A stretch of DNA of 60,000 bases from Lytechinus pictus (taxonomy: Eukaryota), in NCBI RefSeq assembly GCF_037042905.1, contig NC_087251.1, positions 44,642,001 to 44,702,000 on the forward strand, written 5' to 3'. Under the pieces are notes generated by a model that ran no database searches, was not told the origin of the DNA, and was given only the letters and a program-made list of their open reading frames with translations. The position numbers and the translations under genes are program-made. Below, one piece after another: positions 42,963 to 48,104 of this stretch; position 1 is the stretch's first letter, and each line of letters starts with the position of its first letter.

Positions 42963-43238
42963 GGGCCCCATCTTACAAAGAGTTGCGATTGATCTGATCA
43001 ATCGCAAGTATGGAAAGCCAGCAAAGTCAACGTACAAAATGCAGGGTTTTTTTAAAGATGTTTTCGAGATAAGATGCATACTCACACAGCCAACGATGTC
43101 TTGGCCATTCAGTGTGCTTCTTTTTGTTTACAAAGGACATTGTGCAAATTTCCTGCAGAAAATAAATTATGATGTGGATGGACTTCCATATAGTTGTGGT
43201 TAATTGGATCAATCGTAACTCTTTGTAAGACGGGGCCC
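42963..43238. mobile_element. Harbinger-like MITE
   Basis: TIR gggccccatcttacaaagagttgcgattgatc / gatcaatcgtaactctttgtaagacggggccc. Confidence 0.85.
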
Positions 43239-43747
43239 TGATGTGCCTTGCACCCTAAAGTTGAAATATAGTGATAAGAGTGATAAGCCAGATGGAATAT
43301 CACCATACTTGGTTTTACCATATTCATCGTATCAAATAGGTATTTGGATGGACTTCGCATTTTAACTACTGCTCATCATTCCACGATCGAAATAAGACAT
43401 GTTTCTTTGTTATCGATCTCATACTTATATTATCATAATAATGCAAACAATGTTTTGGAATAATGTTTTTTTTCATGACGTGCTGTAGTATCTCAAGCGT
43501 AAAATGTACATTTCAATCATCATTACTCCGCAAACTATGCAGTCTATACCATGATTTTAATAATACGTTTAGTTAAGTTGATATTGATATTCATAAGACG
43601 CATGAGTAGGCCAAGTATCAGGAATATAATATATATATTTATAAAAGAAGAGGGCCCTTTGCATAACGTGTATTACAGCGCGTCATGTTCTATGTACACT
43701 TGTAAATAATTCAGCATCAACGCAAGACGTAGCTTCCATGTATCTCT

Positions 43748-43792
43748 TTATTACAAGCTTTCGGCCAATGGGGCCTTCATCAGGCCTATAAT
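43748..43792 (-). ncRNA. Minimal type I hammerhead ribozyme motif (family A, inverted copy)
   Basis: On -: gc CUGAUGA a ggcc-ccauu-ggcc GAAA gcuu gu. Confidence 0.78.
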
Positions 43793-44384
43793 GCATTGAA
43801 ACAAACAGAACAAACCATACAAATAAGGTCGAAATAACAAAGTAAATGTGTAACAAAGGGTACAGAACAGAAGGGTTACACTAAGATAACAAAAATAACA
43901 GAAATTAACAACAGAGGGGGTTGAGTACAGAACAGAAGGATTATAGTAAGATAACAAAAAATAACAACAGAGGGGGTAATGACTTGAACCCAAATACAAG
44001 ATACAATATTGAAACGAGTTATCATTTTACTTGAAACATTATCCTCATTTTTTCACAGTATTACCTACACAAGACTCACTACTCCTCCTGATGAACAGAA
44101 TCCCAAGTTAATTTCAATGCCGGTAAATACCTTGTCCTTTCACACACTTAAGTTTCCCAATCGTTTCTATTGTATTCCACCATCTCGTTCAAGTCATTAC
44201 CCCCTCTGTTGTTATTTTTTGTTATCTTACTATAATCCTTCTGTTCTGTACTCAACCCACTCTGTTGTTAATTTCTGTTATTTTTGTTATCTTAGTGTAA
44301 CCCTTCTGTTCTGTACCCTTTGTTACACATTTACTTTGTTATTTCGACCTTATTTGTATGGTTTGTTCTGTTTGTTTCAATGCA

Positions 44385-44428
44385 TTATAGGCCTGATGAA
44401 GGCCCCATTGGCCGAAAGCTTGTAATAA
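44385..44428 (+). ncRNA. Minimal type I hammerhead ribozyme motif (family A)
   Basis: CUGAUGA 44393-44399, stem II ggcc/ggcc, GAAA 44414-44417, palindromic AGCU in place of helix III; predicted cleavage after 44421. Confidence 0.8.
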
Positions 44429-44474
44429 AGAGATACATGGAAGCTACGTCTTGCGTTGATGCTGAATTATTTAC

Positions 44475-44476
<2 letters not shown>

Positions 44477-44506
<30 letters not shown>
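44477..44506. repeat. (TA)n tract between two tail-to-tail PLE ends
   Basis: Read directly from the sequence. Confidence 0.95.
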
Positions 44507-44508
<2 letters not shown>

Positions 44509-44556
44509 GAGATCAAGTGTATGGAGAGGGCCGTAGCAAGGTCAATACCTGTCTTC

Positions 44557-44590
44557 ATCAAGCTTTCGGGCACATGCCCTTCATCAGGAT
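44557..44590 (-). ncRNA. Minimal type I hammerhead ribozyme motif (family B) in the 3' pLTR
   Basis: On -: auc CUGAUGA a gggc-augu-gccc GAAA gcuu gau; stem I auc/gau. Confidence 0.82.
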
Positions 44591-44840
44591 CTAAACCAAT
44601 AAAATACAAAATATAGGCCTACTAATAACAATGGTAAATACAATACAATGCAATACATAACGGAGATAAGTAATTGTAGTCCATAAATAATAACCAATTA
44701 TACATGCAAGGTAATGGTAAGTCAATATGTAACGAAGTATAGAATATATAGTTACCGTAGGGTCCGTAAGTATAGTGTGTTGTTTATAGTAAAGTTAAGT
44801 GTGAAGTGAGGTCAGGTCATTATAGGGTGAAGAGGGTCGT

Positions 44841-45989
44841 TTATTGGTCGGCGTTTATACCACGTGGTCTTAATGTTTTGAGTTTGTGTATCCAATGAGA
44901 TTCCCTTTTCATGATGGTGTCGTGTTTCTTGTTTTTTACTATTTCGATGGCAGTGATGTTAATGTTGTGTACTGTATGCCCGGGAAGGTTGAAATGTATG
45001 GTGTACGGGAGGGTTTTGCTGTTGGGTTTGTTTTTGTTGTAATTGGTTACTTCTGATCTAGTGTTATTTAGTCGTGTGTATAGTGTTGTTTCAGTCTTTC
45101 CGACGTATTGCATGTTGCATTTAGTGCATGTTAGGAGGTAGATGACCCATGAGGATTTGCAGTTTATGTGATCGCGTATGTTGAATTTTTGTCCAGTGAC
45201 TGAACTTGTGAATGTCGTTGTTTCTTGGATGTGATAGTGGAGTGAACATTTTTTTGCTTTGCATTTGTAGAACCCTAGTTCTAGTGTTGACATGTCTGTG
45301 ATAAAGGTGCATGTCGTGTCACTGGTGTTATGATTATTTGTTTGGTTGTTTCTGTTGTGATTTTCTGTTTCCATTTGTGGTGATTTAGCGTTTACTAGTA
45401 AGTCGCGTAGTGATCTATTTCGGCGGAAGGATGTCATCGGGGCTCTGTGAAAGATGGTTTTCAGTGTGTCACTCTGTTCGATGAGTGGATAATGTTTATG
45501 GATGATGGAGGGTATTGTTGATGTGCCTGGTGTGTATGTGACAGAGAAGTGGATATTCGTAGAAGTTTGTTTCTTGTTTTTGATGAGAAGTTGTTCTCGA
45601 GGTATGATGGAGGCTTTTTGGATCTGTTCCGTTACCAAAGTGGTGTCGTACTGACGGCGTGTGAGGTGTGTCTCTAGTTTGGTCAGATGGTACTTTGTAC
45701 TGTCATCACCAGAGCAAATTCGTCTAACGCGGGTTGCTTGACTGAATGGTATACTGCGGAAGGTGTGTTTCGGGTGGCAAGAAGTTGGTAGAAGATAACT
45801 GTGTGAATCTGTCGGCTTGTTGTATAGTTCTGTATGAAGTGTGCCATTTTTTAGTTGAAGGAGTGTGTCGAGAAAGCAGACTTCTGAATTTGAGGATTCG
45901 AATGTGTATTTTATAGTGGAATGTCTAGTGTTGATGGTGTCCTGGAATTTCGCAAGAAGTCTAGGAGAGCCAGACCACATGAACTGTAT
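44841..45989 (-). CDS. PLE polyprotein C-terminal half: RT palm/thumb, Cys-rich linker and GIY-YIG endonuclease (uninterrupted but 5'-truncated; the ATG at 45980 is internal)
   Basis: FLDTLL…[12 protein letters not shown]…[24 protein letters not shown] (PLE RT); linker [24 protein letters not shown]…R…RESHWI…GIN. Confidence 0.93.
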
Positions 45990-46108
45990 ATGTGCCCGAA
46001 AGCTTGATGAAGACAGGTATTGACCTTGCTACGGCCCTCTCCATACACTTGATCTCGAATATAATTATGAAGGAGACCCGTACACGTACATCGCCAAGAT
46101 TGATCACA

Positions 46109-46110
<2 letters not shown>

Positions 46111-46202
<92 letters not shown>

Positions 46203-46203
46203 A

Positions 46204-46245
<42 letters not shown>
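46111..46245. repeat. Long interrupted (TA)n microsatellite
   Basis: Read directly from the sequence. Confidence 0.95.
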
Positions 46246-46249
<4 letters not shown>

Positions 46250-46554
46250 ACGCATGCACATTACAACGATTTTTTAAAAATGTTTATAAATCATAAGGTA
46301 GCAAGATGAGAGTGAAAACTATTTGTGATAAAGCAGAAAATCGAAAAGGACAAACTGCACTCCGAATAGAAAGGTCAATGCGTGCGCATACACTCACACG
46401 CACAAACACGCGCCCGCACACACACACCCACACACACACACACATGGGTTATTTATATGACGATATTACATTCCGCGTGTTAGACATAGATGAGACAAAA
46501 GAGACAAAGAAGTAATGCATTGCAGTTCCAACAAAGTTTATTTCCAAGTATTCT

Positions 46555-46593
46555 CCAAATTTTCGACGTAAACCTTGCAAGTCTTCGTCAGGG
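46555..46593 (-). ncRNA. Degenerate minimal hammerhead motif (family C, left arm)
   Basis: On -: cc CUGACGA a gac…guc GAAA auuu gg; stem II partly eroded. Confidence 0.55.
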
Positions 46594-46608
46594 ATACAAA
46601 GCTCACAG

Positions 46609-46647
46609 TCCCTGACGAAGACGTGAGGTTCACGTCGAAAAATTGGA
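46609..46647 (+). ncRNA. Minimal hammerhead motif (family C, right arm)
   Basis: CUGACGA 46612-46618, 7-bp stem II gacguga/ucacguc, GAAA 46637-46640, then aauu gg. Confidence 0.68.
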
Positions 46648-48104
46648 GAATACTTGGAAATAAACTTTGTTGGAACTGCAATGCATAACTTCTTTGTCTC
46701 TGTTATATTTATATGAATATATGAGTATTTTTTCATATTTATATGAATTTATGATACTTATATAGGTTATAATTCATTTTCCATGTTTTTTTTTTGCAGG
46801 AGTTTCTGCATTTTATTCATGAATCAATAACAAATGAAAAAATTGATACAATAATATAAATGAGTACATTTTTGTGTGACAATAAAAAATATAAATAATG
46901 TATAAAACTGAAAACTACATAGATAAAGCTTGTAAAATAGTAAAGTGGGTACAAAATGCAGGGGCCAGCTATAATAAGCAGGTAACTGCTTGAAACAATA
47001 GCAGCCATGAGGGTTCTGTTTGATGTAATAAATTTAACGAACACATCAATAATAGCTTGCAATATCTCGTCTTAATCAAATTCTTCCTACTAGATTTAAG
47101 GAGAGTTGATTTTGACAATTTGTTTCATGTCCTATTTATCAATTTTACCTTTTTAATTCCATTTCTACACGTATCTATATAATATCGCCTGTGTTTATTT
47201 TGTAAATACAAAATGCGAAAGACTGGAGTATGATTAATATTGAAGCAATCTCAGTCGTAGACTTCAGCAACGCCATAATAAATCATGGAATCATAAGGTG
47301 TGTTTCCAAGTGTAACCAATCAAATGTCCTCCCTTGTTGATAAAGAGTGCATAATCAAAATTACATTTCATGCAAGGCGTGACTGCATATTGAGATCCTT
47401 TTGAATCAATATTGCATGTAATTTTCAAATAGGTCAGGTTGCAATTGTGAGCAACTCCGCGGTCAAGATTTACACATGATTTTTATGCACTGCATTTCTC
47501 TGATATACATTGATAACTTATCATTGATAACTATCAGAATGATCATCAAATATTCATTTATGTCTACCCCGCCTTGTTACAACTATGAATGTTAAAGAAT
47601 ACAAAATAGGAGCCATGAAAATGGTCTAATTCTATTTATATGACAGCGTATCTCCACACAAAAGTCTGCTTTCTGGGTTTTACGCCTTCATCCATAAACA
47701 TAATTTGAATACTATGTTCACATTCATTGTTTTGTACTATGATATTGATGCGTATACATTATAATAAGAAATAGATGAAATGTCAACTTGAAAAAAATAA
47801 ATGTTAACTTAAATATACTAACGCACGTTGATCCATATGTTTGCATGTGAGTGATTGCGTGGGTTTTTGATTGTGAGCGTGAGTAGTTATGCGTGAGGGT
47901 GTGTATAATCGTGTGAGTCTTTTCCTAACGTGTATCACGTAGATGAAATTATTTACGTCTGGGACCGTCCTATCACCTCACCATCTGAAAAAAACCTGAC
48001 ATGAGGATCGAACCCGGAACCTTCATCAGCTCCTAGCATCCACAACAGTTTTATCCTCCAATGTATACCCTTCTCTGGTATTTTCACATCTACTTTAGAT
48101 TGGG

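Follow-up and report, generated by a model that had tools for sequence, protein, structure and literature searches.

Minimal hammerhead ribozymes of the kind carried by metazoan Penelope-like elements (PLEs) are the closest described counterparts of the locus considered here, a 3-kb part (positions 43700 to 46701) of a 60,000-nt stretch of the Lytechinus pictus genome (assembly GCF_037042905.1, contig NC_087251.1, forward-strand positions 44,642,001 to 44,702,000; the whole stretch is called the window below, and coordinates refer to it unless stated otherwise). According to the report on these ribozymes (Cervera and De la Pena, 2014; PMC4209133), they have a conserved G10.1-C11.1 pair, a palindrome at positions 15.2-16.2 and a short helix I, which is 4-5 bp long and only 2 bp in D. 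virilis. The same report describes several families per genome, dual motifs lying 100-700 bp apart on opposite strands, and weak cleavage in vitro that occurs only as dimers or trimers; related work on minimal hammerheads (Lunse, Weinberg and Breaker, RNA Biol, 2016) is cited in a review (PMC6765202). Our analysis makes it very probable that the 3-kb stretch is made up of three separate insertions of PLEs with a C-terminal endonuclease (families A, B and C) in or beside (TA)n tracts, each present as a head-to-head pair of truncated copies, and that the motifs found there are the hammerheads of the 3' untranslated regions (3' UTRs) of these elements.

The insertion of endonuclease-positive PLEs has been described in two reports. 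In the first, 5' truncation, an adjacent inverted 5'-truncated copy, (TA)n targets, a tail of 30-40 bp that is often found at one end only, and a CX2-5CxxC linker in Neptune and Nematis were documented (Craig et al., 2021; PMC8557442). In the second, a purified PLE protein cut and extended both DNA strands at AT-rich sites, with reverse transcription from two internal start sites whose spacing equals the tail; the hammerhead cut only in the presence of the protein and was dispensable for insertion in vitro, and 5'-truncated templates without most of the motif still inserted (Frangieh et al., 2024; PMC11167929). In addition, animal retrozymes are reported in a recent preprint to originate from the pseudo-long terminal repeats (pseudo-LTRs) of PLEs (Li et al., 2026; bioRxiv 10.64898/2026.07.22.740005).

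Hammerhead motifs and the insertions that carry them

A first-pass annotation, made from the letters of the window alone, had described five complete hammerhead motifs and one half motif in this region, and all of them are present at the positions given when the sequence is read directly. The five complete motifs share one layout, in which CUGANGA is followed by one extra A, a helix II hairpin and GAAA; both boxes stand in type I order around helix II in 5/5 motifs, and 4/5 satisfy a relaxed descriptor. This descriptor was derived from a strict one (CUGANGA, 0-1 extra nt, a helix II of at least 4 bp closed by G-C, GAAA, a palindromic A-N-N'-U, and a position H17 that is not G) by dropping the helix III (palindrome) rule. 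The strict descriptor found three sites in the 60-kb window (A+, A- and B-) and the relaxed one found four, C+ being added, and no descriptor site lay elsewhere in the window than at the listed motifs. Across 200 dinucleotide shuffles of the whole window, the mean number of sites was 0 for the strict descriptor (maximum 0) and 0.005 for the relaxed one (maximum 1). Because the shuffles give no strict site against three observed, the motifs are real and far above chance expectation.

The motifs fall into three families. The family A core reads CUGAUGA, the extra A, a helix II of GGCC-CCAUU-GGCC, GAAA and then GCUU, with an AGCU palindrome and U17. Its minus-strand copy runs from C3 at 43783 to U17 at 43755, with a predicted cut between 43755 and 43754, and its plus-strand copy from C3 at 44393 to U17 at 44421, with a predicted cut after 44421; both match the strict descriptor, as does the family B core on the minus strand, which runs from C3 at 44587 to U17 at 44560 and has a predicted cut between 44560 and 44559. 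Family B has the same core as family A, with a helix II of GGGC-AUGU-GCCC and again an AGCU palindrome. The cuts proposed by the first reading, after 44421 (+) and 44560 (-), agree with hammerhead numbering. The half motif starts at 45990 on the plus strand, inside helix II, and belongs to a 5'-truncated B copy. In family C the core consists of CUGACGA, the extra A, a helix II of up to 7 bp, GAAA and AAUU-type letters. The C(-) motif (C3 at 46591 to U17 at 46557) has its helix II broken by an insertion after 3 bp and matches neither descriptor, and the C(+) motif (C3 at 46612, position 17 at 46644) has a helix II of 7 bp and matches the relaxed descriptor only; its palindrome is mutated, AAAU in place of the family's AAUU. 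AGCU followed by U is thus found in A(+), A(-) and B(-), and AAUU followed by U in C(-) and in the majority of family C. The extra A, present in 5/5 window motifs, is 97% conserved in 35 family-C copies, and the G10.1-C11.1 pair, which closes helix II in 5/5 motifs, is G-C in 34/34 distinct C copies. The distance from the cut site to the short 3' end is 55 nt in A, 58 nt in B and 59 nt in C.

These features resemble closely what the PLE report describes (PMC4209133), with type I topology, CUGANGA and GAAA boxes, one unpaired nucleotide between A9 and position 10.1, the G10.1-C11.1 pair, a 4-nt palindrome (AGCU or AAUU) in place of the helix III loop, several sequence families per genome, a pseudo-LTR location, and opposite-strand pairs 100-700 bp apart. 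The extra A, the missing helix III and the palindrome, to which the first-pass annotation had drawn attention, are therefore present as stated and are published hallmarks rather than oddities. Two differences can be set against that source: helix II has 4 bp in families A and B (7 bp in C) compared with the usual 6-8 bp, and family A combines a very weak helix I with a competing 9-bp helix. There is no difference in kind from published PLE minimal hammerheads, and the window motifs are ordinary tail ends of PLEs, of a type that has already been described.

A repeat search showed that the motifs are arranged in three inverted repeats, namely I1 (43691-43989 with 44187-44485, 299 nt, 99% identity), I2 (44497-44575 with 45990-46068, 79 nt, 97%) and I3 (46497-46575 with 46626-46704, 79 nt, 95%). 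Since each pair of motifs represents the two arms of one inverted repeat, the motifs correspond to three insertion events and not to five or six independent ones. Within the window the insertions extend over about 43643-44476 (A), 44502-46111 (B) and 46458-46703 (C), and each of the three carries an optional 3' tail on one arm only (3/3), the left arm in A and C and the right arm in B. The left arm of A, defined by I1, is a 5'-truncated PLE 3' end on the minus strand (43643-43989), with its tail of about 56 nt outermost, at about 43643-43698. The right arm is a 487-nt 5'-truncated 3' end on the plus strand (43990-44476), which has the tail-less short terminus, adjoins (TA)n, and can be aligned without interruption (98.8%) with the 3' UTR downstream of a 1026-amino-acid frame of an element on contig C20. 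Within the family A 3' UTR, two internal direct repeats of 30-36 nt, with spacings of 56 and 65 nt, were observed in both arms (43860-43977 and 44199-44316).

Only a 25-bp (TA)n remnant (44477-44501), a microsatellite target common to A and B, separates the first insertion from the second. The long arm of B, delimited by I2, its reading frame and its genomic copies, lies on the minus strand at 44502-45989, is 5'-truncated, ends in the short 3' terminus, and contains the 3' part of a reverse transcriptase-endonuclease (RT-EN) frame followed by the 3' UTR with the hammerhead. The short arm, also given by I2, lies on the plus strand (45990-46111), starts in helix II, and ends with a tail of about 43 nt before the (TA)n microsatellite of about 140 bp that flanks the B insertion (46112-46250, recognized from the direct-repeat family D1 and TA inverted pairs). 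In family C, I3 and a flank comparison of 36 copies place the left arm at 46458-46606 on the minus strand, with a tail of about 40 nt outermost, and the family alignment places the right arm, with the short 3' end, at 46607-46703 on the plus strand. The description of the region as a landing pad is thus supported in that A and B lie 25 bp apart in one (TA)n tract, the usual target of the families, and has to be reduced in that the five motifs represent three insertion events.

The same arrangement is known from endonuclease-positive PLEs such as Neptune, Nematis and Penelope/Poseidon (PMC8557442, PMC11167929). Like the insertions here, these elements are truncated at the 5' end and accompanied by an inverted copy that is also 5'-truncated, they may bear a tail, in most cases at a single end, they go into (TA)n or AT-rich DNA, and their protein has a C-terminal GIY-YIG endonuclease with two core cysteines and a cysteine-rich linker. 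The tails are longer here, 40-58 nt as against the 30-40 bp given in PMC8557442.

Copies and reading frames across the genome

When each family end was used to search the genome (811 Mb in 368 contigs), all three proved to be multi-copy, with counts that refer to first-look candidates. The family A 3' region gave 234 candidates, and 41 of the 43 scored matches were 100% identical over 131 nt; family B gave 150 candidates with identities of 93-100%, and family C gave 167, whose non-self matches were 79-93% identical. On the basis of the copy identities of A and C, family A is very young and family C old. With at least 41 identical copies of family A and an uninterrupted 1026-amino-acid frame, this genome has seen recent PLE activity.

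Each family has two alternative 3' termini, a short one and a longer one to which a fixed tail is added (about 56-58 nt in A, 43-45 nt in B and 40 nt in C). Among the sampled copies, a twin was counted where a copy on the minus strand preceded one on the plus strand and both 3' ends faced outward. Among the sampled ends of family A, the tail was present in 17/33, nine twins were found, eight of them with the tail on one arm, and a (TA) run of at least four units lay beyond 32/33 ends. The corresponding values were 16/38, 12 twins with 11 one-arm tails, and 37/38 for family B, and at least 13/35, eight twins with four one-arm tails, and 24/35 for family C. Ends belonging to twins accounted for 18/33 in A and 24/38 in B. 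The one-arm tail in 19/21 twins of families A and B can be compared with the in vitro system (PMC11167929), in which the reverse transcription start sites are alike on both strands, and it offers a small quantitative clue for models of two-strand priming. Taken together, the twins, the one-sided tail, the (TA)n targeting, and the fixed spacing of 55-59 nt between cut site and short 3' end in three families provide a clean genome-scale illustration of PLE hallmarks.

Reading frames of PLE type were found upstream of the motif and on the same strand, with RT and GIY-YIG domains, in families A and B, and family C could be connected through an endonuclease remnant and an RT frame at different loci. 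The assignment of the RT to PLEs relies on Pfam RVT_1 matches and on the domain order, RT and then GIY-YIG. In the window itself, a 395-amino-acid frame (44841-46028, minus strand), identified from the open reading frame, Pfam and similarity to family A, corresponds to the C-terminal end of a PLE polyprotein and covers the RT thumb/linker and the GIY-YIG endonuclease; it is encoded on the strand of the B motif, upstream of that motif, and its first codons run into the inverted arm. Compared with the family A polyprotein, it is 51% identical over 185 amino acids (E 2e-61). The 1026-amino-acid A frame on contig C20 is uninterrupted, has the family A 3' region about 600 nt downstream, and matches RVT_1 (E 2.1e-8) and GIY-YIG (E 4.7e-5), both above the cut-off. 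A second family A 3' end lies 6065 bp upstream of the first in direct orientation, which is a pseudo-LTR arrangement. At this locus (C20:3873757-3882952, minus strand), about 1.9 kb separates the upstream 3' end from the frame, and this stretch contains internal tandem repeats, with repetitive peptide-like frames on the opposite strand.

A tblastn search with the A frame against 90 loci (E<=1e-5) matched four non-window A loci and 14/29 non-window B loci; with the same A polyprotein and threshold, a PLE frame within 1.5 kb was found at 0/28 non-window C loci. Two longer family C loci provide the connection. At one (L065), a GIY-YIG remnant frame lies about 450-750 nt upstream of the motif and matches the A endonuclease core (34% over 74 amino acids, pairwise E 8e-10), and at the other (L093), a 718-amino-acid frame with an RVT_1 match (E 4.8e-13) is followed, about 375 nt past its stop, by a C-type motif. 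The cysteine-rich linker has the form C-x4-C-x2-C in the C-type frame of L093 and C-x4-C-x2-H in A and B. We also considered family C as a non-autonomous unit of about 0.4 kb with a fixed 5' end, and this candidate was rejected, as the copies at L092 and L065 extend upstream into the endonuclease remnant, which the tblastn search with the A polyprotein had not detected. Because longer copies reach the GIY-YIG remnant and the 718-amino-acid RT frame, family C is the 3' end of an autonomous PLE family that has been heavily 5'-truncated. The proposal that three distinct PLE families with minimal type I hammerheads are present, each linked to PLE frames, is therefore upheld, with the 1026-amino-acid frame speaking for A and the loci L065 and L093 for C. 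Searching with the C-type endonuclease fragment gave 640 first-look candidates, of which 150 were scored; they fall into several identity bands and include frames of up to 976 amino acids. The genome is rich in PLEs.

Proposed origin and rival explanations

The insertion mechanism that we propose is taken from published PLE work, and all features seen fit it. The GIY-YIG endonuclease would cut AT-rich DNA on both strands, and at each cut the RT would prime from either of two internal sites located 3' of the hammerhead, as the published biochemistry indicates; two-strand priming together with alternative start sites would then give rise to the inverted twins and to the tail. Each insertion is a head-to-head twin of two 5'-truncated copies with the 3' ends outward, and in the element's 3' UTR (pseudo-LTR) a minimal type I hammerhead precedes the short 3' end by 55-59 nt. 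As the hammerhead sits in the 3' UTR, each arm that is long enough brings one motif, and a twin can bring two on opposite strands. As this hammerhead is without helix III, its active core would form only when the AGCU or AAUU palindrome pairs with a second copy, and its presumed role would be the processing of multimeric transcripts from tandem master elements, possibly assisted by protein. The copies in the window are 5'-truncated and mutations are present in 2/5 motifs; no copy is arranged in direct tandem with another of its family, so their earlier description as self-cleaving modules was overstated, and they are truncated, dead leftovers.

Further evidence comes from folding and from the comparison of copies. 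In 35 family-C copies, the named structure is 93.9% paired, compared with 30-51% for slid controls, and helix II differs among A, B and C and yet pairs in each of the three families. Helix I is 3+4+4 bp with an internal loop in B, 3 bp in C and 2 bp in register in A, and the minimum-free-energy fold of the B monomer is compatible with a hammerhead. The family B core is invariant in 33/33 copies, but almost all of the surrounding sequence is likewise invariant, and no informative pair change was found among these 33 copies. RNAcofold homodimers contained only a trivial intermolecular helix II duplex and are uninformative on a hammerhead dimer.

Several results weigh against reading the motifs as functional hammerheads of PLE families and should be considered together. 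Within family C, the covariation score was reached by 365/500 shuffles and is not above them, and both-sided changes amounted to a single pair, a value reached by 232/500 shuffles. The claim that stem II covaries thus holds only when the three families are compared with one another and fails within the 35 C copies. Mean identity in family C is 0.908 at the 13 core positions and 0.951 at 25 positions downstream, a pattern that is the expectation of neutral decay after insertion. In the minimum-free-energy fold of the A monomer, the cut site is hidden within a 9-bp helix, and given this competing helix and the 2-bp helix I, the predicted ribozyme activity of family A is doubtful; in addition, both window copies of family C are mutated. 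With regard to the protein evidence, the GIY-YIG match of the 395-amino-acid frame (E 5.8e-4, 20.5 bits) is under the cut-off of 22.6, and no GIY-YIG match to Pfam was found in the C-type frames. Rfam supplied no independent model-based support for the hammerheads: at the gathering score there were 0 matches in the 60 kb, and at E<=10 none of the 14 matches in 43000-47500 was a hammerhead. The catalytic core boxes resemble those of the Rfam hammerhead families (Hammerhead_1, RF00163, and its relatives), whose models expect helix III, but no match was obtained at either threshold, as is to be expected for motifs without helix III; direct reading of a sequence can accordingly spot PLE minimal hammerheads that Rfam models miss. 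Finally, in three raw ribosomal RNA-depleted runs under the same species label, 18, 18 and 27 reads fell on 43990-46070, with a depth of at most 4 over the hammerheads, and no pile-up of read starts or ends, which would mark cleavage, was seen in this interval, where the reads are too sparse to judge cleavage.

Among the rival explanations, chance matches to a short degenerate pattern might be invoked in view of the short core boxes and the lack of an Rfam hammerhead, but the shuffles, the recurrence of the motif at matching distances from the 3' end across three families of unrelated sequence, and the agreement of all motifs with published features lying outside the boxes leave this explanation with practically no probability, and the shuffles and the family context have already refuted it. 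Non-autonomous, retrozyme-type elements that spread via small circular RNAs would account for the very short length of most C copies and for the 0/28 C loci with a nearby PLE frame, and animal retrozymes are reported in the preprint cited above as derivatives of PLE pseudo-LTRs (bioRxiv 10.64898/2026.07.22.740005). Animal non-LTR retrozymes (Cervera and De la Pena, 2020, PMC7229834; Li et al., 2026) indeed have type I hammerheads, a short palindromic helix III and a reported origin from PLE pseudo-LTRs, in common with this locus; they form, however, head-to-tail tandem arrays from which small circular RNAs arise, whereas we observed inverted twins of truncated autonomous elements. No direct, head-to-tail repeat of any of the three families was found in 43000-47500 by the repeat search, and since the longer C copies reach the endonuclease remnant and the RT frame, we regard a retrozyme origin as very improbable, even for family C, to which it would apply best.

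A cluster of working ribozymes recruited by the host, or a regulatory RNA locus under selection, has in its favor the five motifs within 3 kb and the few RNA reads that overlap the region. Every motif, however, is part of a repeat dispersed through the genome (150-234 candidates per family), mutations affect two of the five copies, core conservation is not above that of the flanks, and the clustering is explained by (TA)n target preference, so that such recruitment seems less probable still than a retrozyme origin. It could also be argued that the twins, especially the C hairpin with its arms of about 100 nt, serve as precursors of hairpin RNAs or microRNA-like molecules and not as ribozymes, since the Rfam model MIR7994 (RF03818) gives a match to each strand of 46533-46668, with 56.3 and 53.9 bits (E about 1e-9), and eight C twins occur among the 35 sampled ends. 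Both values fall far short of the gathering threshold of 100 bits, a model of this type gives a score to any long, perfect hairpin rich in A and U, and the hairpin is a by-product of twin insertion; the match is probably a generic effect of this kind, and a precursor role is about as improbable as the retrozyme one. Three truncated PLE twins therefore remain by far the best supported origin of the motifs.

On this PLE origin, two extensions can be considered. The stacking of A and B in one (TA)n hot spot might turn solo, inert hammerheads into working pairs, with read-through on the minus strand yielding a cross-family heterodimer. Such a heterodimer is conceivable because A(-) and B(-) share orientation, core and palindrome: from 43783 in A(-) to 44587 in B(-) there are 804 nt, the core is identical, AGCU is present in both, and the helix II change is compensatory. 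Only A(-) and B(-) share a strand, and no family has two copies in direct orientation here; we give this scenario a slim chance. A bolder variant would make the pairing of two template RNAs in a dimeric RT-EN particle the main job of the palindrome, which would fit the high share of ends that belong to twins in A and B; against it stands the in vitro insertion of truncated templates that are without most of the motif (PMC11167929). Beyond annotation, the significance of the locus is little.

Transcript reads and other observations

Some of the RNA reads deserve separate description. Only one 64-nt piece of the A right arm (44059-44122, plus strand) was matched by reads of all three runs, at a depth of about 4-11. 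Its edges resemble splice sites, with an acceptor-like ...cag| and a donor-like |gtaaat, and the reads continue into one constant unrelated sequence upstream and into variable sequences downstream. Because they mismatch the window at 44066, 44067 and 44102, these reads come from a related expressed exon elsewhere and not from the 100%-identical A copies. Either the A element may contain an exon that it captured along with the splice sites, or an A-like piece may have been exonised by a gene. In addition, five reads from two runs join 44590 to 44765 and skip 174 nt, the end of which coincides precisely with the 5' boundary of the B hammerhead. The junction ends are CT..TC and not splice-like, and this junction probably reflects a B subfamily with a deletion or another 3' UTR rather than an intron.

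Two observations concern the surroundings of family C copies elsewhere in the genome. Beside the family C twin at L092, positions 1500-1590 of that locus contain a stretch that looks, by eye only, tRNA-like or like a tRNA-derived short interspersed element. Matches to the sequence about 160-300 nt upstream of the C hammerhead recur at steps of about 20 kb on two contigs (C8:17.46-17.91 Mb and C6:9.69-9.93 Mb), a pattern pointing to a C-related fragment that forms part of some larger tandem or segmental repeat.

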